DNA of 40,971 nt from Candidatus Omnitrophota bacterium. GTDB taxonomy: Bacteria > Omnitrophota > Gorgyraeia > Aquiviventales > Aquiviventaceae. Under the pieces are notes generated by a model that did not search any database, was not told the origin of the DNA, and saw nothing but the letters and a program-made list of their open reading frames with translations. The stretch covers positions 1 through 40,971 of the forward strand of contig JACQHS010000110.1 in the NCBI GenBank assembly GCA_016198915.1. The letters run 5' to 3'. Both the position numbers and the translations under genes were made by a program. Shown piece by piece: positions 9,519 to 40,971 of this stretch. The stretch's first letter is position 1. Each line of letters opens with the position of its first letter.

Positions 9519-10959
9519 GCGAATGGGACGGCTAGTCAAGCAATCGGGCATCCTGATGGGGATGGAGCTCGGGATCCGGCTTATCGATGCGCTGGTCGCC
9601 GTCATCCTGGCGCGGTACCTGGCTCCGCAGGGCTTCGGACTGATGGCCTTCGCCTTGTCCTTTGCGTCGCTCTTCAGCATGATCCCGGGTTTCGGCATGG
9701 GCTCCCTGAGTATCAGGGATCTGGCGCGGAACCCGGAACAGGTCAGCCACTACCTGGCGAATGGCTTGGTGGCCAAGGCCTTCCTCGCGGCGTTCACCTT
9801 CGCGCTCATTTTTATCTTGACCCAATTCATGGGATTCGCGGCGAGCAAGACGCTGATCGTGATGCTGGCGGCGCTGTTGATGGTGGTGGAGACGAACGTG
9901 GTGTTCCCGTTGGGTTTCTTCCAGGCCGCCCAGCGGATGTGGACGGTGGCGCTGGTGCAGCTGGCCATCCGGGTGGGATGGCTGATCGCGGCCCTGGCCG
10001 TCATTGGGATGCGGGGCGGCCTGGTGGAGTTGCTCGGCTCCCGCGCCGCGGTCACGGCCGTGGGACTCATCACGGCGCTGGTGCTCATTGACCGTCGGCT
10101 GCAGCGAATTCGCTGGAGCGTGAACCTCCGGTTTATCCCGTGGATGCTGAAATCTTCATTTCCGTTTGTGCTGTTCCGGGTGTTCTCGGCGTACCATCTG
10201 GAGCTCGGCGTGGTGATGCTCTCGATGATCCGCGGTGATGTGGTGACCGGATGGCTGGTTGCGGCCCAGAAAATTATTCGGGTCTTCCAATTTGTTCCAA
10301 GGAGTCTCTACGAGGTGATGGTCCCGGAGCTGTCGCGCCCATCGCGCACGTTGCGGACCGATATCCTCGCAACCCTGACGCGCAGCTGGAAGTATCTGCT
10401 GTTGATCGCGCTGCCGATTGCCGGAGGAACCTACATCCTGGCCGATCGGTTTATTCTGTTGCTCTACGGGCAGGCCTATGCACCGGCCGCGCCAGCGCTG
10501 CGTATTCTGATCTGGCTGATTCCGTTCGGGTTTGTGAACAGTACCCTGAGGGCGGCGGTCGTCTCGGTGGATCTCGAGCGCCAAACCGCCGTGGCGCTCA
10601 TGGGGGTGTTGGCCCTCAACGCCCTGCTCAATCTGGTGGCGATCCCACACTTTGGCTTGGTCGGCGCCGCGGGCACTTTGCTGTTGACCACCATCCTGAC
10701 CTTCCTCCTGCAGCTCTTGCTCCTGCGACGGGCCCTGCCGACACTCGGATTCTCGAACGGGACGATCAAACCGGTTCTGGCCACCGTGGGCATGATGGCC
10801 TTCACGTGGCTGAGCCGTGACAGTGGACTGGTGTACGCGATTCTTGGCTCGGTGGCGGTATATGTCGGGTGTCTGGTCCTGTTGCGAGTCATCGGGCGTG
10901 ATGAGTGGAGCCTCCTGAACGGGATAGTGCGGCCAAAAGCCATTGATGAGCGAGCCTGA
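9511..10959 (+). CDS. MOP-superfamily polysaccharide flippase (Wzx-like)
   Basis: About 12-14 TM segments. N-terminal 'LIDALVAVILARYLAPQGFGLMAFALSF' is typical of the Polysacc_synt family. ATG 9511 lies 10 nt after AGGAGG (9495-9500) and overlaps the upstream gene by 8 nt. Confidence 0.8.
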   Translation: MPRRMGRLVKQSGILMGMELGIRLIDALVAVILARYLAPQGFGLMAFALSFASLFSMIPGFGMGSLSIRDLARNPEQVSHYLANGLVAKAFLAAFTFALIFILTQFMGFAASKTLIVMLAALLMVVETNVVFPLGFFQAAQRMWTVALVQLAIRVGWLIAALAVIGMRGGLVELLGSRAAVTAVGLITALVLIDRRLQRIRWSVNLRFIPWMLKSSFPFVLFRVFSAYHLELGVVMLSMIRGDVVTGWLVAAQKIIRVFQFVPRSLYEVMVPELSRPSRTLRTDILATLTRSWKYLLLIALPIAGGTYILADRFILLLYGQAYAPAAPALRILIWLIPFGFVNSTLRAAVVSVDLERQTAVALMGVLALNALLNLVAIPHFGLVGAAGTLLLTTILTFLLQLLLLRRALPTLGFSNGTIKPVLATVGMMAFTWLSRDSGLVYAILGSVAVYVGCLVLLRVIGRDEWSLLNGIVRPKAIDERA

Positions 10960-21952: not shown

Positions 21953-21968
21953 AAACGCTGAGGATGGC

Positions 21969-23918
21969 ATGAGGCAGCAGTTGGTGGTGGCGATGACGAT
22001 CGGCGGAATGGTCGGGGCCTTCTGCGGGGCCGTCGAGGCGGGCGTGTTCTTGGTGCGCATCTCGTGGGGTCCTCTGGATACGCACACGATCGCCAAGGCG
22101 ATGGTGCTCTATGGACTGCCCAACGCGATCATCGTTGGGTTCTGGGGACTGGTCGCGGGGCGAGGGATGGATCTCAGGACGTTTGAGATCAGGACGCTGG
22201 CGTTCAGTCTCCTGACTATGGGCTATCTGTTCGGAGGGTTGTACGTGAACCGGCTGTGGCTGCCTGAGATCACGAAACTTCCGAGCCTGGTTTTCACCGG
22301 ATCCTGGACCCTCGCATGGCTGGCCGGCGCCTGGGCGCTGCTGAAGCTCCGCACACGCCCGGGGCACCCGCCCCGCACCGATCTTGCCTGGATCGGCGCT
22401 CTGCGGATGGCGGCGATCGGACTCGCCGTTGTGGCGGGGCTGTCGTTCGTGCCTCCGCTCCTGGCGGGCAGGCCCACCCGAGCTGGTGGCGCGGCGCCGA
22501 CCGTGCTGGGGCCTGCCGGGCGCCCGAACGTCCTGCTCATCGTGATGGACACCACGCGAGCCGACCGTTTGTCTTCGTACGGATATCCGCGCAACACGAC
22601 CCCGCATCTGGACCGCTTCGCCCAAGAGGGGGTCCTGTTCGAACAGGCGAGCGCGACGGCCCCGTGGACCCTGCCGTCGCATGCGTCGCTGTTCACCGGG
22701 CTGTATGTGGCCCAGCATGGAGCGGACACGTCGCACCGACGGCTCGATGATCACCTGGTCACGCTGGCTGAGCTGCTCCGCGAGCAGGGCTATCAGACGG
22801 TTGGCTTCTCCAACAATGGAGCCGTCAGCGTGGCGATGAACTTTCAGCAAGGGTTTGAGGTGTTCGAAGAGTCGCGCTTTTTCAGGGGGCAGGCGTTTAG
22901 GCAGCTCGCAATCGTTCGGCTCTTGGACCGATTTCAACTCCCGCAGCGCGGGGGCAACGCGCACGCCGCAGAGACCAACAAGCGCATCAGGGCCTGGTTC
23001 GAGCGCCGCTATGACCGCCGTCGGCCGTTCTTCCTGTTCATCAACTACATGGAGCCGCATTTTTCCTATGAGCCGCCTGAGCCGTACCGCAGGCGGTTCC
23101 TCCGACTGCCGAACGAGGTGAGGCGATCGCTCCGGAGGGGGCATGCGGTGATCAAGAGTCCCCCGCCGGTCTCCCTGGACGAGCCGATACGCGAAACCCT
23201 CGGGGACCTCTACGATGGGGAGCTTGCGTATCTCGATATGCGGATCGGCGAGCTGTTGGACGAGTTCAGGGCGCGCAAGCTGCTGGACGACACCGTAGTG
23301 ATCGTGACGAGCGACCACGGCGAGAACATCGGCCATCACGAAATTCTGGGGCATCACGACTGTGTGTACGAGACCCTGCTGCATGTTCCGCTGATCATCC
23401 GGTATCCGAAGGCGCTGCCGGCCGGTGCGCGGGTTGGCCAGCCCGTCTCGCTGGTGGATGTGCTGCCGACGCTACTCGCACTGCTGGAGGTGAGGGCCCC
23501 CGCCCTCGAGGCGTCGCTGCCGGGCTACAGCTTCGTGGGGTCCGGCTTGGCGGTGCGGGAGGATCGGGTCATCCTGTCCGAGTACGAGATCGCACGTCTC
23601 GGGCCGCAGGGCGCCGGGGGGTCGGGACGGACGAATGCAACAGCGGATGCGACGGCGACGGCGAAGCTGAAGAGTCTACGTGAGGGCGCGCTCAAGTTCA
23701 TCCGGTCGCCAGACGGGCGGCATGAGCTCTATGACCTCGAGCGGGATCCGGCCGAGTCGCGCAACCTGATCGCAGAGTTGCCAGGGCAGGCGGCGGCGAT
23801 GGAGGCGAAGCTCGTGAGACACTTCAAGGCCCTGAAGCCGGTCGGCTCACCCGAGCCGGTGCCTGAGCTCGATGCGGTGACGCGCGAGCAGCTCAGAGCG
23901 CTTGGGTATCTTCATTGA
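21969..23918 (+). CDS. Membrane-anchored AP-superfamily (sulfatase-like) enzyme, Thr type, paralog 3 (close to paralog 1)
   Basis: 'NVLLIVMDTTRADRLSSYGY', 'APWTLPSHASLFTGLYV' (Thr codon 22668-22670) and 'VIVTSDHGENIGHHEILGH'. GAGGA at 21960-21964 precedes ATG 21969. Confidence 0.8.
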   Translation: MRQQLVVAMTIGGMVGAFCGAVEAGVFLVRISWGPLDTHTIAKAMVLYGLPNAIIVGFWGLVAGRGMDLRTFEIRTLAFSLLTMGYLFGGLYVNRLWLPEITKLPSLVFTGSWTLAWLAGAWALLKLRTRPGHPPRTDLAWIGALRMAAIGLAVVAGLSFVPPLLAGRPTRAGGAAPTVLGPAGRPNVLLIVMDTTRADRLSSYGYPRNTTPHLDRFAQEGVLFEQASATAPWTLPSHASLFTGLYVAQHGADTSHRRLDDHLVTLAELLREQGYQTVGFSNNGAVSVAMNFQQGFEVFEESRFFRGQAFRQLAIVRLLDRFQLPQRGGNAHAAETNKRIRAWFERRYDRRRPFFLFINYMEPHFSYEPPEPYRRRFLRLPNEVRRSLRRGHAVIKSPPPVSLDEPIRETLGDLYDGELAYLDMRIGELLDEFRARKLLDDTVVIVTSDHGENIGHHEILGHHDCVYETLLHVPLIIRYPKALPAGARVGQPVSLVDVLPTLLALLEVRAPALEASLPGYSFVGSGLAVREDRVILSEYEIARLGPQGAGGSGRTNATADATATAKLKSLREGALKFIRSPDGRHELYDLERDPAESRNLIAELPGQAAAMEAKLVRHFKALKPVGSPEPVPELDAVTREQLRALGYLH

Positions 23919-23929
23919 GGAAACCACTG

Positions 23930-26900
23930 ATGGTAGCTGAGCGTATCCGAGGAGCGGCAAGCGAAGTCGCAGGGATCTCCGCGAGGCCTCTGCGGCTCGT
24001 GATGATGGCGCTGGTCTGCGCGTTGGTGAGCATCGGGTTCGGCGGCGACTCGAGCGCGGCTTTGGCGGTTCAGGATGCGCTTACCAATGGTGGGTTCGAA
24101 CATCCCGAGGACGGTGCGCAGAGCCCGGAGGGCTGGGAAGTTGGGGGGCGGACGGAGCGCGTCGAGTCCTCCGCGGATGGTGGGGGGGCATGGGCGTTGC
24201 GGCTGTCCTCCACAACGGAGGAGCCGAATCCGAGGGCGTCGCAATCGCTGGACGTTGTCCAGCCGCTTGCGACGGCGGTCACGGTGGCGGGCCTGGTGAG
24301 GATCAAGGATGTGCATCCCATCGGTGACGGGAAGGGCGCCGCCAAGGTCACCGTCAGCTTCTTGTCGGTGGATGGCCGCGTGATCCGTCGCAAGACGATC
24401 CGAACATGGGATGGCACGTTCGGCTGGCGCCCGTGGTCCGGCTCCGTGCGCATCCCGAAGGGCGCCGGCCGGCTTGAGCTCGCGCTCGAGCTGGAGGAGG
24501 CCCTGGGACAGGCCACATTCGATGCCGTGCAGCTGCTGTGGGGCCTGCCGGACGACCATGACCGCGAGAACCTCGTCGTCGATGGCGGGTTCGAGTATGT
24601 GAACCCCCTGTCGGTCTGGGAACTGGATCAGGGAGCGAAAGTGGTGTATCCCGGCGCCGAAGGCCATGCCGCATTGGAGATTTCACGGGACCAACCCGGG
24701 CACGCTGCCGCCCGTCAGCGGCTCGTGTTCGCTGAGGCGTCGATCCGGGAGGCGACACTCACGTTTGACCTCAAGCTGAAGAAGGTCAAGGCACGAGCGC
24801 CCGGGGGAGGCGCGAAGGTGGAGCTGGGCTTCTGGGATCGTGAAGGCGAGCCCGTGGGGAAGCCGGTTGTGGTGGGTCCATGGGCAGGGACACAGGAGAC
24901 TTGGAAGTCGCGCGCCAAACAAGTGCGGGTTCCGCCTGCGGCAAGCGAGGCGACGCTGGGTCTGTTGCTGGATCAGGCGCGCGGAACGGCCTGGTTCGAT
25001 GGGGTGCGGCTGGCGGCGCACGGGGCCGAGGGGCCGCTGGTGCGTCGTCTGGAGTCCCGAACGGACATCGCGACCTGGAGAGTCATTGAGCCCAGCATCG
25101 GACCCTTGGAGCCGCCGTTTGATGCGAGCGGGTTGCTCAATCCGCCCGCGGGGCAGCACGGATTCCTGACCGTGGAGGACGGCCGTTTTGTCTTCGAGGA
25201 CGGGACACCCGCGCGCTTCTTCGGCGTCAATATTGACGCGGCCGCCAACTTCCCGAGCCATGAGCACGCTGACCGCTTCGCCGAGCGGCTGGCGCAGCTT
25301 GGGTGCAACCTCGTGCGGCTGCATCATCTGGATGCCCCGTGGGCCGACCCCAACATCTTCGCTGCCGAATTCGAGGACACCCAGCATCTCTCGCGCGAGA
25401 GCCTGGACCGGCTTGACTACTTCATCGCGCAGCTCAAGGCGCGGGGGATCTACATCTACATGGATCTGTTGGTCAGCCGCCAGTTCAAGTCCGGGGATGG
25501 CGTGCCGGCCTACCGGCAGCTCTCGCGAGGGGCGAAGATCGCCGCCCAGTACAGCCCGCGGCTGATTCAGCTGCAGAAGGCGTATGCGCGCGATCTGCTC
25601 ACCCACTATAACCGGTACACGCGGACGCGGCTGGTCGAGGAGCCGGCGCTCGTCCTGGTTGACCTGATCAACGAGAGTTCGCTCGCGGCTGACTCGAAGC
25701 GGTTCAAGGAGCTCCCAGGGCCCTACCGCGATGAGCTGCAGCTGCTCTGGGGGGAATATCTGTCCGGTCAGGGCGTGGATCGCGCCACGATGGACGCGGA
25801 GCGCTATCTTGAAGTCGACGATCCGTTCGTGCAGGGATTCTACACGAACCTCCAGCAGCGCTACTTTGACGAGCTGTACGGCTACCTCCGCGGGCTCGGG
25901 CTTTCGATTCCGATTGCGGGAAGCAACCGCAGCACCCTGTCGCTGAGGACCTGGGAGCTTGCGACCAACGCCACACTGGATTTCATTGATCGGCATGACT
26001 ACTGGGACCATCCGAAGGGCGGGTACGGGGACCTGGTGCGATTCCACAATCGCTCGATGATCGAAGGCGGCCAGGAGCACCATCCGATCGCCAAGCTGAG
26101 TGTACAGCGTGTGGCGGGCGTGCCGTTCGTGGTGAGCGAGTGGAACATCCCCTGGCCCAATGAGTACCGGGCGGTCGGTCCCCTCCTCATGGCGGCCTAT
26201 GCCTCATTTCAGAATTGGGACGGCCTACTCCTCTTCACCTACGATGGGGATCTCGCCGCCACGCGAATCGCGAATAACTTTGATGTCAGTACAATGCCGG
26301 AGCAGTTCCTGCAGCTTCCAGCCGCAGCTCGGCTCTTCCACCGCCGAGAGGTCCAGCCGGCGCGTCTCACTCGCGCGTATCCCATCGACGCAGAGCACCA
26401 GAGCATCAGCCCGGGGCTTCCGCTTCGGCACGGTGTAGCGCGCGTTGCGGGGGATGCCGCACCACCCAAAGCGCTGGCCATGGCGAGCAACCCCTGGGTG
26501 AGCGATACCGGCGAGCTGGCCTGGGATGAACGGCACGGGCGCGTCTCGATCAAGACGGCTCGTGTACAAGCCGTTGTCGGACAGATGGGGGACGGACCGC
26601 TGTCGCTTCCTGATGCGACGTTCTCGGTGGAGACGCCTTTTGCCTCCGTGGTGCTCTCGAGCCTGGATGAGCAGCCGGTCGTGAGCTCGCGGCACCTGTT
26701 GCTGACGACGGTCGCGCGATCGGAGAACACCGGGACGGTCTATAACGCGACGCGGACGCTGCTGCGGGACAGCGGCACGGGCCCTATCCTCATGGAGCCG
26801 GTGATGGGCTCCGTATCCATGCCGCTGGGCGGGCGTCGACCGACCGGGGTGTTTGCGCTGGATACCACTGGACGCCGGGTGAGCGAGGTGGCGGCTTCCG

Positions 26901-26974
26901 TGCGTGAGGGCTCGATCGAGGTGCCGCTGGGCGAAGCCCTCGCCTATGAAATCGTGTTTGAGGAGCCCTCATGA
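23930..26974 (+). CDS. Secreted multidomain glycoside hydrolase (two CBM-like modules + clan GH-A TIM-barrel-like domain)
   Basis: Signal peptide 'LRLVMMALVCALVSIGFGGDSSAALA'. Two 'NGGFE'/'DGGFE' jelly-roll-type modules. 'GFLTVEDGRFVFEDGTPARFFGVN...LGCNLVRLHHLD', 'LINESS' (candidate acid/base NE) and 'FVVSEWN' (candidate nucleophile). ATG 23930 lies 8 nt after GAGGA. The track start 23915 is a TTG. Confidence 0.65.
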   Translation: MVAERIRGAASEVAGISARPLRLVMMALVCALVSIGFGGDSSAALAVQDALTNGGFEHPEDGAQSPEGWEVGGRTERVESSADGGGAWALRLSSTTEEPNPRASQSLDVVQPLATAVTVAGLVRIKDVHPIGDGKGAAKVTVSFLSVDGRVIRRKTIRTWDGTFGWRPWSGSVRIPKGAGRLELALELEEALGQATFDAVQLLWGLPDDHDRENLVVDGGFEYVNPLSVWELDQGAKVVYPGAEGHAALEISRDQPGHAAARQRLVFAEASIREATLTFDLKLKKVKARAPGGGAKVELGFWDREGEPVGKPVVVGPWAGTQETWKSRAKQVRVPPAASEATLGLLLDQARGTAWFDGVRLAAHGAEGPLVRRLESRTDIATWRVIEPSIGPLEPPFDASGLLNPPAGQHGFLTVEDGRFVFEDGTPARFFGVNIDAAANFPSHEHADRFAERLAQLGCNLVRLHHLDAPWADPNIFAAEFEDTQHLSRESLDRLDYFIAQLKARGIYIYMDLLVSRQFKSGDGVPAYRQLSRGAKIAAQYSPRLIQLQKAYARDLLTHYNRYTRTRLVEEPALVLVDLINESSLAADSKRFKELPGPYRDELQLLWGEYLSGQGVDRATMDAERYLEVDDPFVQGFYTNLQQRYFDELYGYLRGLGLSIPIAGSNRSTLSLRTWELATNATLDFIDRHDYWDHPKGGYGDLVRFHNRSMIEGGQEHHPIAKLSVQRVAGVPFVVSEWNIPWPNEYRAVGPLLMAAYASFQNWDGLLLFTYDGDLAATRIANNFDVSTMPEQFLQLPAAARLFHRREVQPARLTRAYPIDAEHQSISPGLPLRHGVARVAGDAAPPKALAMASNPWVSDTGELAWDERHGRVSIKTARVQAVVGQMGDGPLSLPDATFSVETPFASVVLSSLDEQPVVSSRHLLLTTVARSENTGTVYNATRTLLRDSGTGPILMEPVMGSVSMPLGGRRPTGVFALDTTGRRVSEVAASVREGSIEVPLGEALAYEIVFEEPS

Positions 26975-28422
26975 TCAAACGCTCAGAGGTGTTCGTCAAA
27001 CAGCTCGTGCTGCTAATCGATCTGGCGGTTCTGGTGGTGGCGTTTCTCGCCACCTATGCCCTCCGACAGTCGGTTCAGACGTTCTATCTGCTGGACCTCA
27101 TTCCCGGCCGCGAGGCGATCGGCGAGCTCTATCCGCTGGATCGCTACCTCTGGTTGTTGCTGATCATCCTGCCGCTCTGGATTGGCATACTCTACGCGCT
27201 GGGCGGCTACCGGGAGCTTCGCAACAAATCGTACCGTCAGATTGCGGCGGTGGTGCTGAAGGCCTGCGCGTTGGGACTGCTGTTCTTCGGCTCCTTCGTC
27301 TTTGTCTTGAAGCTCCATTATGTCAGCCGACTCTTCATGGGGATGTTTTTCCTGCTCAGCTTCCTGCTGCTGGCGTACGAGCGGACGGTCGTGATCGTGT
27401 GTTTCCATCTCATGCTGCAGCGGGGGTACTTCCATCGGAATCTCCTCCTAGTGGGGACGGGCCGGCGCGCCCGCGCGGTCATCAAGGATATCCAGGGCCA
27501 CCAGAACTGGGGGGTCGGGTTTGTCGGACTCCTCGATGCCGATCCGGGCATGGTGGAGCAGCACGTGGAGGGTGTCGAGGTCATCGGCACCCTGGAGGAG
27601 CTGCCCCGCATGCTGCAGGAGCGCGTCATCGATGAGGTGGTCTTCGTCGTACCGCGGACCTGGATGGCCAGGATTGAGGAAGCGATCCGCGCCTGCGAGC
27701 TGGCGGGTGTGCGGGCCTCGGTGGCGGTGGATCTGTTCAACATGCGCTTTGCCAAATCGCATCCCTCCGCCCTCAATGGCACGCCGTTCATCAGCTTCGA
27801 TACGACGTCGACGGATCAATGGCAGGTCGCGCTCAAGCGCGTGCTCGACGTGGTGATCGCGGGCCTCGGCCTCGTGGTCCTGTTGCCGCTGTTTGTGGTG
27901 GTCAGCCTGCTGATCAAGGCGACCTCCTCGGGCCCCGTGCTGTTCCAGCAGGTGCGGTGCGGGCTCAACGGTCGTCGGTTTACCCTCTACAAGTTCCGCT
28001 CAATGGTCATGGATGCGGAGGCGAAGCGAGCGGAACTGGCGCACCTGAACGAGCTCAACGGCCCGGTCTTCAAGCTGACCAACGATCCGCGCCTGACGCC
28101 GGTCGGCCGCTGGCTGCGGAAGATGAGCCTCGACGAGTTGCCTCAGCTGTACAACGTCTTCAAGGGGGAGATGAGCCTGGTGGGACCGCGACCGCCCATC
28201 CCGGGCGAGGTGGAGCAGTATCAAGCCTGGCAGCGCAGGCGGCTCAGCATGCGACCGGGGATCACCGGCCAATGGCAGGTGAACGGCCGCAATCATATCG
28301 TGGACTTTGACAAATGGATGCGGCTGGACCTCGAGTACATCGATCGGTGGTCTCTGGCGCTCGATGTGAAGATTCTGGCCAAGACGATCCCGGCGGTGTT
28401 CTTCGGGGTCGGGGCCAAATAG
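26971..28422 (+). CDS. Polyprenyl-phosphate sugar phosphotransferase (WbaP-type priming enzyme, bacterial sugar transferase family)
   Basis: N-terminal TMs plus a central Rossmann-like region. 'RVLDVVIAGLGLVVLLPLFVV', 'GPVLFQQVRCGLNGRRFTLYKFRSM', 'DELPQLYNVFKGEMSLVGPRPP' and 'RPGITGQWQV'. Confidence 0.9.
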   Translation: MIKRSEVFVKQLVLLIDLAVLVVAFLATYALRQSVQTFYLLDLIPGREAIGELYPLDRYLWLLLIILPLWIGILYALGGYRELRNKSYRQIAAVVLKACALGLLFFGSFVFVLKLHYVSRLFMGMFFLLSFLLLAYERTVVIVCFHLMLQRGYFHRNLLLVGTGRRARAVIKDIQGHQNWGVGFVGLLDADPGMVEQHVEGVEVIGTLEELPRMLQERVIDEVVFVVPRTWMARIEEAIRACELAGVRASVAVDLFNMRFAKSHPSALNGTPFISFDTTSTDQWQVALKRVLDVVIAGLGLVVLLPLFVVVSLLIKATSSGPVLFQQVRCGLNGRRFTLYKFRSMVMDAEAKRAELAHLNELNGPVFKLTNDPRLTPVGRWLRKMSLDELPQLYNVFKGEMSLVGPRPPIPGEVEQYQAWQRRRLSMRPGITGQWQVNGRNHIVDFDKWMRLDLEYIDRWSLALDVKILAKTIPAVFFGVGAK

Positions 28423-28439
28423 CGCAGACAACCGAGCCC

Positions 28440-30161
28440 ATGCAGCGAGACCTGGATTGGTTATCGGCGAAGCAGTTTGACCTCCTCGTCATCGGGGGAG
28501 GCATCTACGGCGCGTGCGCGGCCTGGGAGGCGGCACTGCGCGGGCTGTCGGTTGCGCTGGTCGAGCGAGGAGATTTTGGGCAGGCGACGTCGGCGAACAC
28601 GCAGAAGATTGTCCACGGAGGCCTGCGCTACCTCCAGTCGTTTGACGTGAGGCGGATGCTGGAGTCCATTCGGGAACGGAGGGCCTTGTTGCGGGTTGCG
28701 CCGCATCTCGTGCACCCCTTGCCATTCCTGATGCCGATCAATGGCCGGGGCCTCCGAAGCAAAGCGGCGATGGCGGCCGCATTCCTGGTGAATGACCTGG
28801 TGAGCTGGGACCGAAACCGAGAGATGCGCGATCCAGCCCAGCACATCCCTCGCTGCCGCGTGGTATCGAGAGATGAATGCCTCCGACTGGCACCCGGCAT
28901 CGCCAAGGAGGGACTGACCGGCGGGGCCCTGTGGTATGACGGGCAGATCGACAACTCGGAGCGGCTGACCCTCTCGTTTCTGGAGGGTGCCGTGGACCTT
29001 GGGGCAGCGATCGCGAACTACGTCCGGGTCACCAAGTTCCGCTTGGAGGGCAAACGGGTGACCGGCGTGGAGGCGATCGATACCGTGACGGGCAGAAGGC
29101 TCGTCGTCCGAGCCCGCGTCGTGCTGAATACGAGCGGGCCCTGGGTCGATCGGGTGCTGGATCTCCTGGAGGCTCAATCGGTTTCCAGGAAGACGCGCCT
29201 CGTGAAGGCGATGAATCTCGTGACACGCCCGCTGACGCAGGGTGTGGCGCTGGCTGTCCCGAGTGCTGGCGGCAGCAAGACACGCTCACGTCTGTGGTTC
29301 ATGACCCCATGGCGGGATCGCTCAATCGTCGGGACCGCCTATGCGCCCTCCGATGGGGACCCGGAACACTGTCGGGCAAGCGCTGCAGACATTCGGAACA
29401 TGATTGATGTCACCAACCAGGCCTACCCCCCCGCACAGCTCACGACGGACGATGTGGCATTCGTGCATGTCGGGTTGGTGCCGGCGGCTCGTTCGGCAGC
29501 GGAGCCCGATGGCGTGGCGCTCGAGCCCCATTACCAGATCATCGATCATCGACGGCAGAACGGGATCGAGGGGCTCATCTCTGTGGTCGGCGTGAAGTAC
29601 ACCACGGCGCGCGACGTCGCTGCGAAAGCGGTGGATGCCGTCCTGACCAGGTTGGGGAGACCCGTACACAGCAGCCGCAGCGGCGAGACCCCGGTGCATG
29701 GAGGGGCTATCAGCAACGTGCGCAAGTTTCTCGATGACGCCATTGACCGGGCCCCTGGGGGCTTGGGGGCGACGGTTGTTCGGCACCTGGTGCGTGGCTA
29801 CGGCTGTGCGTACCCGGAGGTGCTCAGGTGGCTCGATGAGGACGCGGCGCTCGGCGAGCCTCTCGACGGCTCCTCCGAAGTCATCAAGGCGGAAGTGGTC
29901 CACGCGGTGCGGGAGGAGATGGCGCTTACGCTTGGAGATGTCGTCTTTCGGCGGACCGATCTGGGGTCGCGAGGCGACCCCGGCGAGGCCTGCCTGCGCC
30001 GGTGCGCGCAGATCATGGCGCGGGAGCTTGGGTGGGGTCCCGCGCGCGCAGCCGAGGAAGTGCGCGAGGTCCAGGCCGCGTTTCCAAAGCGCTCGAAGGC
30101 CGGGGCGCATCTGAGCGTCGTCGACGCTCCCGTCGGCACGCACGAAGAGGTCGCCGCATGA
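28440..30161 (+). CDS. FAD-dependent glycerol-3-phosphate dehydrogenase/oxidase homolog (GlpD-like)
   Basis: 'FDLLVIGGGIYGACAAWEAALRGLSVALVERGDFGQATSANTQKIVHGGLRYLQ' and 'APHLVHPLPFLMP'. ATG 28440 lies 17 nt after the upstream stop. Confidence 0.75.
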   Translation: MQRDLDWLSAKQFDLLVIGGGIYGACAAWEAALRGLSVALVERGDFGQATSANTQKIVHGGLRYLQSFDVRRMLESIRERRALLRVAPHLVHPLPFLMPINGRGLRSKAAMAAAFLVNDLVSWDRNREMRDPAQHIPRCRVVSRDECLRLAPGIAKEGLTGGALWYDGQIDNSERLTLSFLEGAVDLGAAIANYVRVTKFRLEGKRVTGVEAIDTVTGRRLVVRARVVLNTSGPWVDRVLDLLEAQSVSRKTRLVKAMNLVTRPLTQGVALAVPSAGGSKTRSRLWFMTPWRDRSIVGTAYAPSDGDPEHCRASAADIRNMIDVTNQAYPPAQLTTDDVAFVHVGLVPAARSAAEPDGVALEPHYQIIDHRRQNGIEGLISVVGVKYTTARDVAAKAVDAVLTRLGRPVHSSRSGETPVHGGAISNVRKFLDDAIDRAPGGLGATVVRHLVRGYGCAYPEVLRWLDEDAALGEPLDGSSEVIKAEVVHAVREEMALTLGDVVFRRTDLGSRGDPGEACLRRCAQIMARELGWGPARAAEEVREVQAAFPKRSKAGAHLSVVDAPVGTHEEVAA

Positions 30162-34984: not shown

Positions 34985-35979
34985 TGCCGATGAGGGCGAA
35001 ACGTCCTACGACCGAGTCACGCAGGAGGGCCGCGGCCAGTCCGCCACATCCCCAGCTCTCCGTCGTGCTCCCCCTCGAAACCACGGGTGACGATCCGGGG
35101 GTGATCTGCCGTGAGGCGCGTCGGATCCTCTCGCCGCTGGTGAAAGACTACGAGGTCATCTGTGTGGATGATGCCACGGAGCCCCCGATGCGGGCGATGA
35201 GCGAGGCCGCGCAGGCGCAGTTTCCTGAAGTTCATCTCATCAGACTGAAGCGTCGGATGGGCGAGTCCGCGGCGATCGCCATCGGCGCGGGGGCGGCGCG
35301 GGGCGAGTTCCTGCTCACCCTGGATCCCTATATGCACGTCTCGTTGGAGGATGTCCCGAAGCTGCTCGGGCCGCTGCGCAACGGCGCGGATCTGGTGTGC
35401 GGGTGGCGCTGCCCCCGGCAGGACTCCGGGCTGAGCCGGCTGGCCTCGCGCACCTTTAATGCGCTCGCGCGCTGGCTGACGAAGGTTCCGGTGCACGATC
35501 TCAATTGCCGCACGCGCGCCATGCGCCGCGAGGTCCTCCAGGACGTGCCGCTCTACGGGGATCTGCACCGTTTTCTGCCCGTGTTTGCGGCATCGCGCGG
35601 CTACACCTGGTGCGAGATCCAGGTGCCGCAGCAGCCAGGCAAGCAGGAGACGGGCGCGTTTCGACCGCGGAACTACGCCAGGCGATTCCTCGATCTCGTG
35701 ACGCTGATCTTCCTGACGCGATTCGTCAGGCGGCCCCTGCGCGTCTTTGGGCTCATCGGGTTGGCGAGCTTCTTGGGTGGTATGGCGATCGGCCTCTACC
35801 TGAGTTATGTCCGGCTCGTCATGGGGCAGGCGATCGGGCATCGCCCGCTGCTGCTCCTCGGGATCCTGCTGGTCGTCGTCGGGATTCAGATCGCCTCCAT
35901 CGGCCTGCTCGGCGAACTCATCGTCTTCACGCACGCACGCGATCTCAAGGACTACGTGGTCAAGCAGCGGTTGGGCTAG
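34984..35979 (+). CDS. Divergent GtrB-like GT2 paralog with degenerate catalytic motifs
   Basis: Collinear with the previous gene, but 'PVYNE' becomes 'PLETT', 'DDGSTD' becomes 'DDATEP' and 'DGDLQ' becomes 'DPYMH' (codons from 35323). The C-terminal TM pair is retained. Confidence 0.7.
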   Translation: MPMRAKRPTTESRRRAAASPPHPQLSVVLPLETTGDDPGVICREARRILSPLVKDYEVICVDDATEPPMRAMSEAAQAQFPEVHLIRLKRRMGESAAIAIGAGAARGEFLLTLDPYMHVSLEDVPKLLGPLRNGADLVCGWRCPRQDSGLSRLASRTFNALARWLTKVPVHDLNCRTRAMRREVLQDVPLYGDLHRFLPVFAASRGYTWCEIQVPQQPGKQETGAFRPRNYARRFLDLVTLIFLTRFVRRPLRVFGLIGLASFLGGMAIGLYLSYVRLVMGQAIGHRPLLLLGILLVVVGIQIASIGLLGELIVFTHARDLKDYVVKQRLG

Positions 35980-35987
35980 TTAAGAAC

Positions 35988-37226
35988 ATGAGTGATACGG
36001 AGAACAGGAAGCTCTTTGTGTGTTACATCCCCGGGGCCGATCTGCGGCGCCTTAACCCCGCGAACGCCCCCTACATGGCAGGGCTGCTGCAGTCCTACCC
36101 CATGATGGTGTTCACGCGGGGATTTCCCACCACCGAGACGCTCTCCACGATCATCACGGGCGCGCGTCCCAACGAGCATGGGGTGTGGCAGGCGACCTTG
36201 CGCTCCGACGGGCAGCTCTCCTGGATGGATCGCGTGATGGACGCCCTGCCGGATCCCCTGACGACCACGGTCCAGTGCGTGCTGTACCAGTTGGGGCGGT
36301 TTGGGGAGATGCCGACGATTCCGCCGCGGCGGCGCCGGCGGCTGGAGTTCAGGAGAGTGAAGTTTCGCGGGAGCGCCGACACCAGCGAGATGCTGACCAA
36401 GGTTGGTGACGTCGAATCGGTCTTCCGGATCATTGGGGCGACAGAGTGCAGCTATCGGTTCTCGGACCAGTTTCACGCCCGAGCCAGGTTGCTGCAAGAG
36501 GCCGTGTCGGGGACGCACAAGCTCGAAATCCTCCAATTCCACGGATTGGATGTGCTCTCGCACTGGCGGCTCGACAACGAGCAGGCCGTGCGCCAGTACT
36601 ACCGGCTCACGGATGCGTTTGTGCGCGAGCTCCATGAGAAATGCCAGGCGAGAGGGGTGACGATGGTCCTCTCTTCAGATCACGGACAGGAGACGGTGCG
36701 GGGCACGGTGGATCTGCGCAGGGCGCTGCGCGGGTCGGGCGTGCCGGAGGACGAGTACACCGTATTCATCGAGGTCATGATGGCGAGATTCTGGTTTCAT
36801 TCCCCGGCGGCCCGGGAGGCCCTGACGAGGGTGCTCTCGAAGACGCCGCATGGGAGGGTGGCCGCGTTCGAGGAGTTTGGCCGGTACCGGATGGACCTGG
36901 CGGACGGACGCTACGGCGAGGTGTTCTTCTTGATGGATCCGGGCTACACCATCTTCCCGCATGATTTCTACCACCCGGTCGTCAACTGCTATTTCGGCCT
37001 GAAGGACTGGCAGCAGCGACGCCGCGCGCACAACCCCAGGCACTATGCGTATCATGGCTATGCCACGGTCTGCGACGCGGAGAAAGGGTTCATGACGGTG
37101 CTGGACCACCGCTATCGGACTGATGGCCAGGAGCACGAGCTGATTGACATGGCTCCGTCTCTGCTCGGCCTCCTGGGGTACCCGAAACCCGCCTCGATGT
37201 CGGGTCACCCCAGATTCCATCGCTGA
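35988..37226 (+). CDS. Type I phosphodiesterase/nucleotide pyrophosphatase (NPP)-family AP-superfamily enzyme, apparently cytoplasmic
   Basis: 'FPTTETLSTIITGARPNEHGVW' (NPP-type Thr nucleophile motif T..P...S/T..TG..P..HG) and 'VLSSDHGQE'. No signal peptide or TM at the N-terminus. Confidence 0.65.
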   Translation: MSDTENRKLFVCYIPGADLRRLNPANAPYMAGLLQSYPMMVFTRGFPTTETLSTIITGARPNEHGVWQATLRSDGQLSWMDRVMDALPDPLTTTVQCVLYQLGRFGEMPTIPPRRRRRLEFRRVKFRGSADTSEMLTKVGDVESVFRIIGATECSYRFSDQFHARARLLQEAVSGTHKLEILQFHGLDVLSHWRLDNEQAVRQYYRLTDAFVRELHEKCQARGVTMVLSSDHGQETVRGTVDLRRALRGSGVPEDEYTVFIEVMMARFWFHSPAAREALTRVLSKTPHGRVAAFEEFGRYRMDLADGRYGEVFFLMDPGYTIFPHDFYHPVVNCYFGLKDWQQRRRAHNPRHYAYHGYATVCDAEKGFMTVLDHRYRTDGQEHELIDMAPSLLGLLGYPKPASMSGHPRFHR

Positions 37227-37286: not shown

Positions 37287-37600
37287 ATGGCGAAGACCGC
37301 GTCTGTCAGGACATCGCCGCTCGTGTTTGGGAGTCCGATGATCGAGGAGCCGGAGATCGCGGAGGTCGTGGTGGACGGCCGGACAGGCTACCTGGTCCCG
37401 GAGCATGACGTCGAAGGGCTGGGAGACCGCATTGCGCGATTGGCGGAGAACCCCGAGCAGCACCGGGCCTTCGCCCGGGCGGCGCGAGAACACGTCCGCC
37501 GGTCGGGTCGTACCACTTGGATGACACCATGGGGCAGTTGGAGGCACTCTATGACACGGTTTGCGAGGACCTTGGGACTCGCTCATCGCGGAAGCCCTGA
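37287..37600 (+). pseudogene. 3' relic of a GT4 glycosyltransferase, internally frameshifted
   Basis: The frame of 37287 reads 'EVVVDGRTGYLVPEHDVEGLGDRIARLAENPEQHRAFARAAREHVRR' (the usual GT4 C-terminus). The expected continuation 'YHLDDTMGQLEALYDTVCEDLGTRSSRKP*' is in another frame (37511-37600). No GT4 N-terminal half lies upstream. Confidence 0.6.
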
Positions 37601-38285
37601 CGTGGCCGAGAGGCACGTGCAGGCACGTGCCGGGCATGAGGCTGCGCTCCGCAGGCAGGAGAGAGGATTGCTGTATGCCAGCTGCCTACTCTTTACCGTG
37701 TGGACGGTCTATTTGTACGTCTCCGGCTCGCCACTCCTTAAGACGTTGTGTGAGGAAGATGGCCTGGTTGAGAACCTCACGGCGCTGTTCTATGTCATCG
37801 CGGGGCTGATCTTTCTCCTTGCAGCAACACAGTCCGGCCTGAAAGCCTCGGTGTGGTATTGGGGCTTCGGGTTACTCTTCCTCTTTATCGCCGGTGAGGA
37901 GATCAGCTGGGGGCAGCGGCTCTTGGGTTTCTCGACACCTTCAGCGCTGATCGAGAAGAATGTCCAGCGTGAGGTCACCCTCCACAACCTTCAGGGATTC
38001 CAGGGGAGCAGTCGAGGGATTGGGGTGCTGCTCTTCTCGGCCGTGTGTTTCCTCATCCCACTGACGAACCGATTCAGCCACGCGCTGCGACGGTGGTACG
38101 GGACGCTCAGGATGCCCATCTATCCGTTATGGGCTGTCGGCGTCACAGCGTTGGGGATCCTGTTCATGGCGATCCCCAGATTGATGTTCCCTGAGCCGGT
38201 CGCTGAGTTGGATGAGATCGGGGAGCTCTACCTGCCAGTGGGTTTCCTCGTCTTTGCCTACACGGAGTACATCCGAGCGCGCTAA
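37287..38285 (+). CDS. Hypothetical polytopic membrane protein; the ORF as drawn is chimeric (GT4 relic codons + ~6-TM body)
   Basis: TM segments 'LLYASCLLFTVWTVYLYV', 'LTALFYVIAGLIFLLAA', 'VWYWGFGLLFLFIAGEEISWGQ', 'GIGVLLFSAVCFLIPL', 'LWAVGVTALGILFMAIP' and 'LYLPVGFLVFAY'. The true start may be internal (ATG 37521 or 37551). Two 60-nt lines I counted (37681-37800) are about 52% and 58% G+C, visibly below the rest of the locus. Confidence 0.5.
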   Translation: MAKTASVRTSPLVFGSPMIEEPEIAEVVVDGRTGYLVPEHDVEGLGDRIARLAENPEQHRAFARAAREHVRRSGRTTWMTPWGSWRHSMTRFARTLGLAHRGSPDVAERHVQARAGHEAALRRQERGLLYASCLLFTVWTVYLYVSGSPLLKTLCEEDGLVENLTALFYVIAGLIFLLAATQSGLKASVWYWGFGLLFLFIAGEEISWGQRLLGFSTPSALIEKNVQREVTLHNLQGFQGSSRGIGVLLFSAVCFLIPLTNRFSHALRRWYGTLRMPIYPLWAVGVTALGILFMAIPRLMFPEPVAELDEIGELYLPVGFLVFAYTEYIRAR

Positions 38286-38413
38286 GTTCTTGGGCGCTCC
38301 CGGCCGCCTCAGTGGGAGACCGCGCCCTCTGTGACCCGCCGGTACTGACACCTCGGCTCAGGCTGGACGGAACTATCACGTGATATTTGTGAGGATATTT
38401 TTGCCTCCCGCCC

Positions 38414-38443
38414 TTGTCAGTCTCCACGGCGATCAGGCATACT
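38414..38443 (+). promoter_or_regulatory. Candidate sigma70-type promoter for the leader and beta-helix gene
   Basis: -35 TTGTCA (38414-38419), 18-bp spacer, -10 CATACT (38438-38443). Lies in the least GC-rich part of the window. Confidence 0.25.
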
Positions 38444-38492
38444 TTCGGTGCACGATCGTAGGTTGACAATCAGCAGGACGGATTGACCCTCC

Positions 38493-38591
38493 CAGCGGCG
38501 TGAGGCCGCTGCAGGAGAGGCGCCCCGCGAAGATGGGGCGCGAGGTGCTGCGGCACCTGTGAGGCTGGATCCCGCGGCAACGCGGCGGGAT
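38493..38591 (+). promoter_or_regulatory. Candidate structured RNA leader (four consecutive GC hairpins), class unknown
   Basis: H1 38493-38511 (CAGCGGC/GCCGCTG, 5-nt loop). H2 38520-38541 (GCGCCCC/GGGGCGC, 8-nt loop). H3 38543-38558 (AGGTGC-TGCG-GCACCT). H4 38572-38585 (CCGCG-GCAA-CGCGG, GNRA loop), with an alternative register ATCCCGC/GCGGGAT at 38569-38591. Confidence 0.4.
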
Positions 38592-38612
38592 TAGCAGACT
38601 TCGACACGGATT

Positions 38613-38650
38613 GCCGGGCTACCGGAGAACGGTAGCCCGGCTTTTATTTT
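38613..38650 (+). terminator. Rho-independent terminator / attenuator hairpin
   Basis: Perfect 11-bp stem GCCGGGCTACC (38613-38623) / GGTAGCCCGGC (38631-38641), 7-nt loop, then TTTTATTTT (38642-38650). It lies 30 nt upstream of ATG 38681. Confidence 0.8.
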
Positions 38651-38680
38651 CTGCCGCCCGGAGCAGGGAGGGACGAAGCC

Positions 38681-40971
38681 ATGTCGTTCGCGGAGCGTGT
38701 TGGGGCCCGGGTCGTGCGGTTTGGGTGGCTGATCGCCGCTGCCGGGTGTCTCTTGGCGCAGGGAGCGCCTCTGGCAGTCGCGGCTGAGTTTCGGACGACG
38801 GAACCCGCCGTCAGCCTCTACGCCAATTATGAAACGGTCAGTGTCTACGGGACCTACTTCGGCGATGCCAATGGCGATAGCACAGCCCGCTTTGAGTACA
38901 AGGAAGCGACGGCCAGCGCGTGGCGGCCCGGCATGGCGATGCACAAGCTGGGTGAGGAGAGCCGGTTTGCCGCCTTCTTCTTTGCCCAACCCGACGTCAC
39001 CTACGATGTGAAAATCACCTTCACCGATCCCGACGGCGTGACCGGGACCAACCCCGCGCAGGCCGCCGTGACGACCCGCAGCGATGTCGTCCCCGCCGGA
39101 TCAGGCACGACCTACCACGTCTCGCCTGACGGCAGCGACTCCAATCCCGGCACGGAGGCCGAGCCGCTGCGCAACATCTACACCGCCGCGTCACTGGTGT
39201 CCGCAGGGGACACCGTCCTGGTCCATCCCGGCACCTACGGGGGCCGCGTGAAAGTGTACAACAAGGTTGGCACATCCTCCGACTGGATCACCTTCCAGGC
39301 CGTGGGCGATGCGCCGGTTATTCTGGACGGCTCAGACACCGCCCTGCTTTCCACCGGACAGAATCGGTGGGCGCTGCATCAGGGATCGGTGTACAAGACG
39401 CCCTATTCGAGCACCCCGCAGGAGTACGTGGCGATTGACGGGATCCGGGCCTACCATTACCCGACCCTCAACGACCTGATCGCGGGATTCCAAGGCATTC
39501 CGGCCGGCTGGGTGCACGAAAGCGGCCAGCTCTATGTCCGCACCGTGGACGGCTCGGATCCGGATGACCATGTAATTCAGGTGTCCAAGACCGCGCACGG
39601 CTTCGAGCTGGACAACGCGCACTACATCAGGATCACAGGCTTCACCATCCAGTACTACGGCAAGGCGGCCATCCGTCTCAATGGGGGGGAGACGAATATC
39701 CTCATCGAAGACAACACCCTGCAGAACAACGGCTACGGGGTGCACAAGGGGGGCACGGGTGGCAGCCGGTTCACGATCCAGCGCAACACGATCACCGATA
39801 CCGGGGTAGCGACCTGGCCCTGGGACAAGGTGAAGAAAACCGTGCACGAAGCCGGCGGCATCCAGCTCTTTGCCATAGACCGGGGGGCGGTGGTTCGGGA
39901 CAACACGATCAGCGGCTTTTTTGACGGGGTGCAGATCAACCACTGGCCGCCGGAGCTGGGCTACAACTTCGATTCCGATGTCTACCGCAACACCATCAGC
40001 GATATCCGAGATGATGGGATCGAGTTTGAGTCCTCCAACGAGACGAATCTGCGGTTCTGGGAGAACCGCATGGAGCGCAACTATGTGGCGATGTCGGTCA
40101 ATCCTGTGCTGCGCGGGCCGGTGTATCTCTTCCGGAACACGGTGGTTGACGCGATCTCCGAGGGCTTCAAGGTGGGCTCGGCGGGGGCCACCACGTCTGG
40201 GATTGAATCCGTCGGCGCGGTGTATGCCTACCACAACACGATCCACGCCATTGACGATGTGGGCAATGACGACGACGGCGTCCAGTGCACGAACGGACCC
40301 AGCTACCAGAACCACACGTATCGGAACAACATCTTCTACGTCGGGCGGTATGTCGTCACAAACGAGGGCTGCCAGTCGACCGGCACGACCTACGACTACG
40401 ATCTCATGTATACGAAGGACTCCTCACGATTCGTGAAATGGGACAATTCAGTCCGCTACGGGAGCCTGGCGGAGTTCCAGACCGCGACCGGCCAAGCCCT
40501 GCATGCGATCAGTGCCGCGCCACAGTTCGAGGACCTCGCGGCAGGCGATCTGCGGCTCACGGCCACGAGTCCAGGCCTCGATGCCGGGACCGTGTTGGTC
40601 GGGTTTAACGATGCGACCTCCCCCTGGCCCTATACGGGCAGCCTCCCCGATCTGGGCGCGGCTGAGGTCGGGGGCGCACAGCCGGCCAACCAGCCGCCGG
40701 TCTTGGCGGCAATTGACAATCGGGTGGTGAGCATCGGTGAGAGCCTGACGGTCGTCGTGAGCGCGTCCGATCCTGATGGCGATGCGCTGACCTACAGTGT
40801 CCTCAACGCCCCGGCCGGGAGCACGTTCACCGGACAGACCTTGAGCTGGACGCCCACGGCGGGGCAGGCAGGGACCTACCAGGTGACGTTCAGCGTCTCG
40901 GATGGCACGTTGAGCGACGCCGAAACAATCACCGTGACGGTGCAGGACGCCGCGGCCGCCAACCAGCCCCC
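38681..40971 (+). CDS. Secreted right-handed parallel beta-helix protein (pectate-lyase-fold, DUF1565-type N-terminus) with C-terminal cadherin/He_PIG-like Ig repeats; 3' end outside the window
   Basis: I translated this frame codon by codon from ATG 38681 (RBS GGGAGGGA 38666-38673) to the window end and found no stop in 763 codons. Signal peptide 'FGWLIAAAGCLLAQGAPLAVAA'. 'YHVSPDGSDSNPGTEAEPLRNIYTAASLVSAGDTVLVHPGTY' plus repeated 'N-T-I/NN' rungs. 'NQPPVLAAIDNRVVSIGESLTVVVSASDPDGDALTYSV...TVTV' from 40688. Not in the supplied ORF track. Confidence 0.85.
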   Translation, partial: MSFAERVGARVVRFGWLIAAAGCLLAQGAPLAVAAEFRTTEPAVSLYANYETVSVYGTYFGDANGDSTARFEYKEATASAWRPGMAMHKLGEESRFAAFFFAQPDVTYDVKITFTDPDGVTGTNPAQAAVTTRSDVVPAGSGTTYHVSPDGSDSNPGTEAEPLRNIYTAASLVSAGDTVLVHPGTYGGRVKVYNKVGTSSDWITFQAVGDAPVILDGSDTALLSTGQNRWALHQGSVYKTPYSSTPQEYVAIDGIRAYHYPTLNDLIAGFQGIPAGWVHESGQLYVRTVDGSDPDDHVIQVSKTAHGFELDNAHYIRITGFTIQYYGKAAIRLNGGETNILIEDNTLQNNGYGVHKGGTGGSRFTIQRNTITDTGVATWPWDKVKKTVHEAGGIQLFAIDRGAVVRDNTISGFFDGVQINHWPPELGYNFDSDVYRNTISDIRDDGIEFESSNETNLRFWENRMERNYVAMSVNPVLRGPVYLFRNTVVDAISEGFKVGSAGATTSGIESVGAVYAYHNTIHAIDDVGNDDDGVQCTNGPSYQNHTYRNNIFYVGRYVVTNEGCQSTGTTYDYDLMYTKDSSRFVKWDNSVRYGSLAEFQTATGQALHAISAAPQFEDLAAGDLRLTATSPGLDAGTVLVGFNDATSPWPYTGSLPDLGAAEVGGAQPANQPPVLAAIDNRVVSIGESLTVVVSASDPDGDALTYSVLNAPAGSTFTGQTLSWTPTAGQAGTYQVTFSVSDGTLSDAETITVTVQDAAAANQP

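Follow-up and report, generated by a model that had tools for sequence, protein, structure and literature searches.

We analysed a 40,971-nucleotide (nt) stretch of a Candidatus Omnitrophota genome (GenBank assembly GCA_016198915.1, contig JACQHS010000110.1, positions 1 to 40,971; hereafter the window), and in particular the structured leader RNA at 38450-38652, which belongs to a small family linked through its relatives to GEMM-I (c-di-GMP-I) riboswitches, the sensors of cyclic di-GMP (c-di-GMP). By Pfam, the window is a single long plus-strand exopolysaccharide-type cluster whose products comprise Wza-like export, a Wzc-like kinase, Wzy-like polymerases, a flippase and an initiating sugar transferase, as well as many glycosyltransferases and three sulfatase-family paralogues. 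The last gene of the cluster stops at 38285 and is followed by a 395-nt spacer and then, from ATG 38681, by a gene that continues past the window end and encodes a secreted right-handed beta-helix protein with a Big_9/He_PIG domain (Pfam matches Beta_helix, Pel9A-like, DUF1565 and Big_9). An initial annotation of this spacer had described four perfect hairpins and a terminator between a promoter-like site and the ribosome-binding site (RBS), together with a repeated 8-mer and a CAATC segment. We found the hairpins, terminator, RBS, ATG, promoter-like site, both 8-mer copies and CAATC where it had placed them, with two corrections: hairpin 2 contains one G.T pair (G.U in RNA), and the terminator, correctly positioned, has a stem of 12 pairs by scan rather than 11. 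The features of the leader are as follows.

38413-38443, plus strand: promoter-like site CTTGTCA-N-CAGGCATACT, found by scan, with a -35 element TTGTCA (38414-38419), a spacer of 18 and a -10 element CATACT (38438-38443).
38450-38492, plus strand: variable 5' leader segment, holding CAATC (38467-38471) and the first copy of the 8-mer ACGGATTG (38478-38485).
38493-38511, plus strand: hairpin 1, CAGCGGC-GTGAG-GCCGCTG, 7 bp with loop GUGAG, from sequence reading and folding.
38512-38519, plus strand: joining segment CAGGAGAG, in which G38519 would correspond to GEMM-I G20 by manual alignment to the RF03167 consensus.
38520-38541, plus strand: hairpin 2, which is P2 of the family, GCGCCCCG-CGAAGA-TGGGGCGC, 8 bp including the G.T pair.
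38543-38558, plus strand: hairpin 3, AGGTGC-TGCG-GCACCT, 6 bp with loop UGCG, present in predicted folds.
38546-38555, plus strand: 5' strand of P3, the antiterminator 5' strand, UGCU-G-CGGCA, which pairs with 38612-38620.
38556-38609, plus strand: P4, a 54-nt irregular hairpin of the consensus structure, with lower part CCUGUGAGGCUGGAUC / GAUUAGCAGACUUCGACACGG and 3'-strand bulges at C38607, G38603, A38598 and A38593-G38594.
38572-38585, plus strand: hairpin 4, CCGCG-GCAA-CGCGG, from sequence reading, inside P4.
38612-38620, plus strand: 3' strand of P3, UGCCGGGCU, overlapping the terminator 5' arm and followed by A38621-C38622 and C38623-G38624.
38613-38650, plus strand: intrinsic terminator found by scan, GCCGGGCTACCG-GAGAA-CGGTAGCCCGGC plus U tract TTTTATTTT; the stem is 38613-38624 / 38630-38641 (12 pairs, 10 of them GC) and the U tract 38642-38650.
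38666-38683, plus strand: Shine-Dalgarno sequence GGGAGGGA (38666-38673), from sequence reading, and ATG 38681 of the beta-helix gene, the gene identified by Pfam.

The segment from 38440 to 38660 (221 nt) folds to -114.5 kcal/mol, compared with -88.9 +/- 4.7 kcal/mol for its dinucleotide shuffles (z = -5.46; 0 of 200 as stable). Transcription is predicted to start near 38450 from the sigma-70-like site, and the promoter motif in its general form, CTTGY-N16-CAGGYATAST, has one match in the window where 0.07 would be expected. The terminator ends 30 nt ahead of the ATG, and the gap between terminator and RBS is too short to hold any promoter.

Close relatives of the beta-helix protein are few, all of them in metagenome assemblies (loci L00x): P0001 (64% identity), P0002 (63%) and P0003 (52%), on contigs L002, L001 and L003. 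All three loci carry the promoter motif upstream of the beta-helix ortholog although their upstream neighbours differ, and L002 has a terminator almost identical to that of the window as well as the invariant stretch TCGACACGGATTGCCGGGCTACC. A metagenome scan with ACACGGATTGCCGGGCTACC recovered the element in L004 and in the identical L005, where it follows a gene for a REC-MshEN-T2SSE ATPase and lies ahead of one for a non-homologous 1379-aa secreted heparinase-II/III-like protein; in L024, a 70% ortholog of this heparinase-like protein is also encoded behind the element, with a terminator stem of different sequence. A covariance model, R1, built from the RNAalifold structure of four sequences (three helices), recovers its four training sequences at 115-137 bits, the window, one of them, scoring 135 bits, and finds a fifth independent copy outside the training set at L001 15006-15151 (L001b; 92 bits, E 6e-23), again behind the promoter motif. 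The five distinct copies are therefore those of the window, L002, L004/L005, L024 and L001b. The promoter motif has seven exact matches in the related loci, six of them directly upstream of the element or of the aptamer at L001 described below, and each of the six copies found has the promoter motif behind it and a same-strand gene ahead. Wherever downstream sequence exists, about 30-60 nt separate the U tract from the start of that gene, too little for a promoter of its own. The element precedes orthologous beta-helix genes in the window and L002 and the non-homologous heparinase-like gene in L004/L005 and L024; where identified, the genes behind it all encode secreted polysaccharide-acting enzymes. 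Across the element-bearing organisms the flanking proteins are only 63-70% identical, and their nearest named homologs, in metagenome-assembled genomes of Planctomycetota and Armatimonadota, reach only 35-47% identity.

Aligned together, the five sequences have 92.7% of cells paired and show double-sided changes in 11 of 40 pairs, a level of pairing and covariation that 0 of 500 column shuffles match (slid-partner controls, 30-41% paired) and that, coming from five distinct sequences only in an alignment (A3) fitted to R1, is good evidence, not overwhelming. For P2, R1 aligns the window with CCCACG-GUAA-CGUGGG in L004, CCCACG-CGA-CGUGGG in L024 and CCCAC..GUGGG in L001b, and two pairs show compensatory changes. 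P4 has 93-95% of cells paired and 5 of its 21 pairs changed on both sides, and the terminator, present in all five members, has four such pairs. We conclude that the family is a conserved regulatory RNA, not a chance one, and that it is not in Rfam 15.

The conservation that the initial annotation had asked of its hairpins holds for hairpin 2 and the terminator. Hairpin 1 is absent from the four other members and is specific to the window. Hairpin 3 is kept as sequence only: the others retain GCUGCGGCACC and cannot form the hairpin, which in the window is a local competitor that sequesters the P3 5' strand. What the conservation reflects is the role of this sequence as 5' strand of the antiterminator helix. 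Hairpin 4 turns out to be the tip of P4, and homology keeps its register as ATCCCGC/GCGGGAT (38569-38575 / 38585-38591), not as the stem closed by a GCAA tetraloop. The 5' segment 38450-38492 has no counterpart in L001b, L002, L004 or L024. This leaves without support the switch geometry that had been proposed between CAATC and the two copies of ACGGATTG (38478-38485 and 38606-38613), since every relative either lacks the segment or has another sequence there, and the repeat is no more than chance would give, some direct 8-mer repeat arising in 703 of 2000 dinucleotide shuffles (35%) of 38450-38652.

Chance GC-rich hairpins, or intergenic repeats of the repetitive extragenic palindromic (REP) or miniature inverted-repeat transposable element (MITE) kind lying behind an operon terminator, are hardly credible as an explanation. 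The genome is about 62% GC and the minus strand folds equally well (z = -5.8), so that energy alone cannot assign the strand, which counts to some extent against a plus-strand regulatory RNA; shuffles, however, never reach the observed energy, and the compensatory changes fit the plus-strand model. The element also occurs once in the 41-kb window, and its other copies are oriented, with a promoter behind and a gene ahead, which is not the pattern of REP or MITE repeats.

The 3' half of the leader can adopt two exclusive structures. When transcripts are truncated before the terminator 3' arm, four of the five minimum-energy folds (L004, L024, L002 and L001b) pair the 5' arm with the segment immediately ahead of P4, forming a helix that extends P4 downward, and RNAalifold applied to a fresh alignment of the five truncated transcripts predicted this helix, P3, de novo (38546-38549 and 38551-38555 with 38612-38620 in the window). 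P3 is paired in 86.7% of cells over the five members, compared with 18-44% when the partner is slid, and it excludes the terminator because both use the terminator 5' arm. For the window transcript to 38629, the state with hairpin 3 (-87.2 kcal/mol) and the state with P3 (-85.5 kcal/mol) are 1.7 kcal/mol apart and nearly isoenergetic; in the full-length RNA, the terminator is preferred (-110.5 vs -99.6 kcal/mol). With an intrinsic terminator between promoter-like site and RBS and a conserved helix using one of its arms, the leader has, as these models fold it, the defining anatomy of a terminator/antiterminator expression platform. The layout of attenuation or riboswitch control that had been suggested for the spacer thus gains a conserved unit that recurs with its own promoter and a conserved structure that excludes the terminator, and the alternative-fold prediction that had been called for yields an antiterminator, conserved P3, in competition with it. 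The other suggestion, that this is merely the terminator of the upstream operon, is very unlikely for a conserved promoter-leader-terminator unit with an antiterminator.

A conserved promoter and a strong terminator would also suit a stand-alone trans-acting small RNA of about 200 nt, with CAGACUUCGACACGGA as its seed and the downstream gene expressed by incidental read-through; the high sequence conservation of the 3' part and the variation of flanking genes among loci point the same way, and terminated riboswitch leaders such as SreA/SreB and EutX do act in trans in other bacteria. We nonetheless consider a small RNA quite improbable. The same-strand gene behind each U tract is too close for a promoter of its own and falls into one functional class where identified; CAGACUUCGACACGGA is paired within P4 and covaries, a conserved antiterminator would be purposeless in such an RNA, and in L001 the corresponding place ahead of the ortholog is occupied by a cis aptamer.

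That aptamer provides the link to GEMM-I. At L001 9945-10022 (L001a), in the leader of the gene for the beta-helix ortholog P0002 and behind the same promoter, there is a match to RF03167 (c-di-GMP-I-GGC) of 75.3 bits (gathering score 59), L001a being the only one of the loci scanned to pass; it has an A at the position-47 equivalent, in the canonical pattern, and a P2 loop of GUGA, a GNRA tetraloop. Comparing the regions upstream of the orthologs, as had been proposed, accordingly gave the element itself in L002, a GEMM-I-type aptamer in L001 and, in L003, no more than a weak R1 match. R1 in turn matches the L001 aptamer at 17.1 bits (E 0.007), and RF03167 aligns end to end with the L005 element at 19.8 bits, below the gathering score of 59, placing P2 on a GNRA hairpin, AGCC-G-CGCGUC and GAUUGCCGGGCU on the two P3 strands, and treating P4 as inserted sequence within the P3 loop. 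L004 also resembles the 5' half of the L001 aptamer (z 6.4; 0 of 500 shuffles). P2 of L004 is nearly identical to that of the aptamer, and the P3 base is the same in both (AGCC-A-CGG/CCG-GGUU vs AGCU-G-CGG/CCG-GGCU).

In the window, the P3 base typical of GEMM-I (AGCC-A-CGG / CCG-GGYU beside P2) appears as UGCU-G-CGGCA with UGCCG-GGCU. Its 5' strand corresponds to AgCc-A-cGG of RF03167, and in L005 cmscan puts the P3 strands on the matching model positions. A38621-C38622 is the counterpart of the GEMM-I joining segment that contains C92. In an uncertain manual alignment (36% identity), the ligand-contact positions G20/A47/C92 read G/G/C in the window (G38519/G38542/C38622), the 'GGC' pattern of RF03167, and G/A/C in L004 and L001a, with L024, L001b and L002 deviating. 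The window is tied to GEMM-I through R1 and through its near-identity to L001b and L004 in P3 and P4. The shared promoter and orthologous gene in L001, the reciprocal weak model matches and the z of 6.4 between L001a and L004 are the reasons for which we take the family to descend from GEMM-I: by sequence, a GEMM-I aptamer appears to have been remodelled into the present element, its 3' strand becoming the terminator 5' arm. We class the element as a structural variant within a known kind of riboswitch, one that Rfam 15 lacks. The initial annotation, which could match it to no riboswitch class, was right as far as Rfam matches on the window go; the family connection emerges only through relatives.

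Taken as a whole, these data lead us to read the element, with a probability of roughly 55%, as a cis-acting, GEMM-I-derived, ON-type transcriptional riboswitch. In the proposed mechanism, transcription would start near 38450 from the conserved promoter, and the RNA would fold P2 (38520-38541) and the long hairpin P4 (38556-38609). In the ON state, 38546-38555 would pair with 38612-38620 to form P3, stacked under P4, which would consume the terminator 5' arm and let polymerase read into the beta-helix gene. In the OFF state, 38546-38555 would be unpaired or, in the window, held in hairpin 3, the 12-bp terminator (38613-38641) with its U tract would form, and the transcript would stop about 30 nt ahead of the RBS. 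A bound effector would stabilise the P2/P3 junction and keep P3 closed, blocking the terminator and favouring ON. The switch thus probably turns on a secreted polysaccharide-acting enzyme adjoining the exopolysaccharide cluster, and enzyme and exopolysaccharide would be made together at high signal. We infer that the likeliest effector is c-di-GMP or a related cyclic dinucleotide; c-di-GMP, one of the ligands that had been listed for probing, is the best lead and our first candidate because the genes encode secreted polysaccharide-acting enzymes, an exopolysaccharide cluster lies beside the element and a canonical aptamer sits on an ortholog. Even if the element is such a riboswitch, we would give c-di-GMP itself less than even odds of being the ligand.

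Several observations weigh against the riboswitch reading. Rfam gives no match on the window at the gathering level and nothing relevant at permissive E-values, and no member of the c-di-GMP-I clan (CL00126: RF01051, RF03167, RF03168) matches at E <=10 in either 501 nt or 128 nt; as judged from sequence, the link between window and GEMM-I is a transitive one, through relatives. P2 of the window is a continuous 8-bp helix with loop CGAAGA, from which the GNRA cap and the AAA/GAC internal loop are absent, and among family members L004 alone (GUAA) retains a GNRA loop. By inspection of the five members, no P1 is evident: no conserved complement to the nucleotides after A38621-C38622 was found upstream of P2; the window offers local options of the CUCC/GGAG type, which are not conserved. 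In P3, two one-sided changes keep the pairing and no pair is changed on both sides. The terminator scan found no terminator-like site between the end of the last cluster gene at 38285 and the promoter, which leaves the upstream 36-kb operon without a terminator of its own before 38613, and the terminator at 38613-38650 may also serve to end that operon.

The distribution of conservation is the point on which the sensor is most open to another view. P3 and lower P4 have 78-82% mean pairwise identity, with the invariant GACACGGA and bulges, and the P4 apex 42%, whereas the junction and P2 (columns 1-30), the presumed ligand-binding part, are the least conserved at 36%, the inverse of a canonical aptamer; P2 is moreover absent in L002, whose P3, P4 and terminator stay intact. 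Such a pattern, with P2 loop identity not kept and a freely varying apex that suits a helix recognised along its side, would be expected if the same switch were operated by the bulged P3-P4 helix, bound by a LicT/SacY-like protein or another small molecule, with the GEMM-I core vestigial. We consider this, the main rival, unlikely: no candidate RNA-binding regulator is conserved beside the loci, no known protein-binding RNA pattern fits (by the Rfam null, and by eye only for K-turn, ANTAR, RAT, PyrR and CsrA), and for an RNA descended from a ligand-binding aptamer it is simpler to assume that a small molecule is sensed. In a related version, which we regard as doubtful, P4 and P3 would form a new ligand pocket or protein site on a GEMM-I scaffold whose c-di-GMP pocket has decayed, making a new class with a different effector, such as a product of polysaccharide breakdown or some other nucleotide signal.

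The GEMM-I junction is eroded differently in each member, the full-length fold favours the terminator and the upstream operon lacks one of its own, all of which would fit a decayed, non-sensing riboswitch, in effect a constitutive leaky terminator that sets low expression and also ends the 36-kb operon. Decay would not, however, preserve the antiterminator; P4 carries compensatory changes, and P3 and lower P4 retain about 80% identity though the flanking proteins are at 63-70%, and we therefore hold this explanation to be very improbable.

Among known systems, the GEMM-I riboswitch (Vibrio cholerae Vc2, RF01051) has a three-part architecture with two side-by-side hairpins, controls surface, matrix and secreted functions, and has expression platforms that use the aptamer 3' strand (PMC7266159). 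The window family is like it in its two-hairpin architecture, its secreted-function gene and a platform on the aptamer 3' strand. It differs in that the window lacks the GEMM-I hallmarks GGCAAACC and GACGCAAAGCC, in that tetraloop-receptor docking cannot be inferred, and in that conservation is concentrated in the P3 extension, not the junction. The clan member RF03167, a GEMM-I variant, is the best Rfam model for the L001 aptamer and the only one aligning end to end with a family member (L005); it shares with the family the P2 hairpin, the P3 base AGCY-R-CGG / CCG-GGYU and a joining dinucleotide ending in C. Unlike RF03167, the window scores below the reportable level, carries a conserved 54-nt extension where the model has a short P3 loop, lacks an evident P1 as well as the P2 GNRA loop and internal loop, and uses its P3 3' strand as the terminator 5' arm. 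Rare GEMM-I derivatives among or near c-di-GMP-I matches, the c-AMP-GMP riboswitches (GEMM-Ib), offer a precedent in that they sense another ligand and control other genes (PMC7266159). Their pockets differ by point changes, and GEMM-I models still catch them, whereas the window family is structurally remodelled and escapes them.

A further parallel, for the reading in which P3-P4 is the sensor, is the ribonucleic antiterminator (RAT), on which LicT, SacY or BglG stabilises an irregular hairpin overlapping the terminator 5' arm and so prevents termination. In the family, too, an irregular hairpin is conserved and overlaps the terminator 5' arm at its 3' end. Unlike RAT, which is about 29 nt long with another consensus, it has no such regulator gene near its loci and no Rfam or sequence match.

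If the GEMM-I reading is true, the family would be a structurally remodelled offshoot of a very widespread second-messenger riboswitch that current Rfam models miss, and the targets of c-di-GMP-type RNA switches would come to include, in an uncultured high-GC lineage, secreted enzymes of beta-helix and heparinase-like type next to an exopolysaccharide cluster. If instead the sensor is P3-P4, the family would constitute a new attenuator or riboswitch class for secreted polysaccharide-degrading or -modifying enzymes in that lineage. The eroded junction beside a nearly invariant P3-P4 extension is a natural test case for evolutionary change of a riboswitch's sensor or ligand, and a small, well-defined family with a clean terminator/antiterminator pair in an RNA of about 120 nt is directly testable in vitro.

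Other candidate explanations and wider searches gave the following. Leader-peptide attenuation was rejected, the sole short open reading frame (ORF; GTG 38458, 12 codons) lying in the non-conserved 5' segment, as were a CsrA site (ACACGGAUU), a PyrR loop (CCUGUGAGGCU vs UCCAGAGAGGCU) and the ANTAR dual hexaloops, a RAT or a K-turn in P4, none of which fits by eye or has Rfam support. ARAGORN found no tRNA or tmRNA. A scan of reference-genome contigs with the beta-helix protein found no relatives, and one with ACGGATTGCCGGN{14,24}CCGGCTTTT, a pattern that would miss the L024 and L001b variants, gave 18 matches, all chance or plain terminators in unrelated taxa; these genome-collection scans were narrow and do not imply absence from reference genomes. 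A scan of viral contigs found nothing. Upstream of more distant homologs (L025 and L026, 60% to the pectate-lyase-like gene of L001; L027, 39%; L028, 49%; and L029) there was neither the element nor an Rfam riboswitch. A literature search found no description of the window-family variant and nothing on what c-di-GMP-I-GGC binds.

The related loci offered further observations. L001b sits after a pectate-lyase-like (PelZ-like) gene on the same contig as L001a, and the contig ends about 95 nt on. The called ATG of P0002 (10001) falls inside the P3 loop of the L001 aptamer; this start call is probably wrong, and translation more plausibly begins at an in-frame GTG near 10040 or further on, ahead of the signal peptide. 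In the 744-nt spacer upstream of this promoter and aptamer, at about 9380-9620, lies a truncated remnant of an IS5/DDE-type transposase. Past the terminator of L002, at about 1915-1960, GACAAACC..GGGCCCGUC..GCCGCGUCGCCGAAGGAACG resembles by eye the 3' two-thirds of the L001 aptamer, with no Rfam match, which suggests a decayed second aptamer of canonical type and a former tandem arrangement. L004 has, at 7977-8007 on the minus strand, the same promoter motif without a riboswitch, ahead of the gene for a response-regulator-receiver/MshEN/T2SSE secretion ATPase; MshEN domains are c-di-GMP receptors, and the motif may mark a regulon rather than a generic promoter. The L003 leader (5826-5985), behind the promoter of the 52% ortholog, is a differently built multi-hairpin structure enclosed by GACAGC/GCUGUC, with a terminator homologous to that of the window and compensatory changes (GCCGGUCUGC/GCAGACCGGC). 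We did not count it as a family member, given its weak R1 match (15.6 bits) and lack of an Rfam family; it may be a further diverged relative.

Within the window, the three tandem sulfatase-family paralogues (18000-23918) have long N-terminal extensions, and a fourth protein, of the alkaline-phosphatase superfamily, is encoded at 35505-37226; by architecture all four are like LtaS/EptA-type phospho-group transferases. A glycerol-3-phosphate oxidase/dehydrogenase-like gene is found nearby (28314-30161), and these genes together hint at a polysaccharide decorated with phosphoglycerol or in a similar way. A 1019-aa ORF in mid-cluster (23915-26974) has no Pfam match. The N-terminus of ORF 37287-38285 (37287-37490) is a piece of about 50 aa from the C-terminal part of a GT4 glycosyltransferase (Pfam; NCBIfam EpsE), joined in frame to an unrelated multi-pass membrane protein; the piece resembles a gene remnant, and the true start of the membrane protein is probably farther downstream. 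Finally, a 132-aa antisense ORF (38591-38989, minus strand) covers the terminator and the start of the beta-helix gene and is probably a spurious product of GC-rich sequence.

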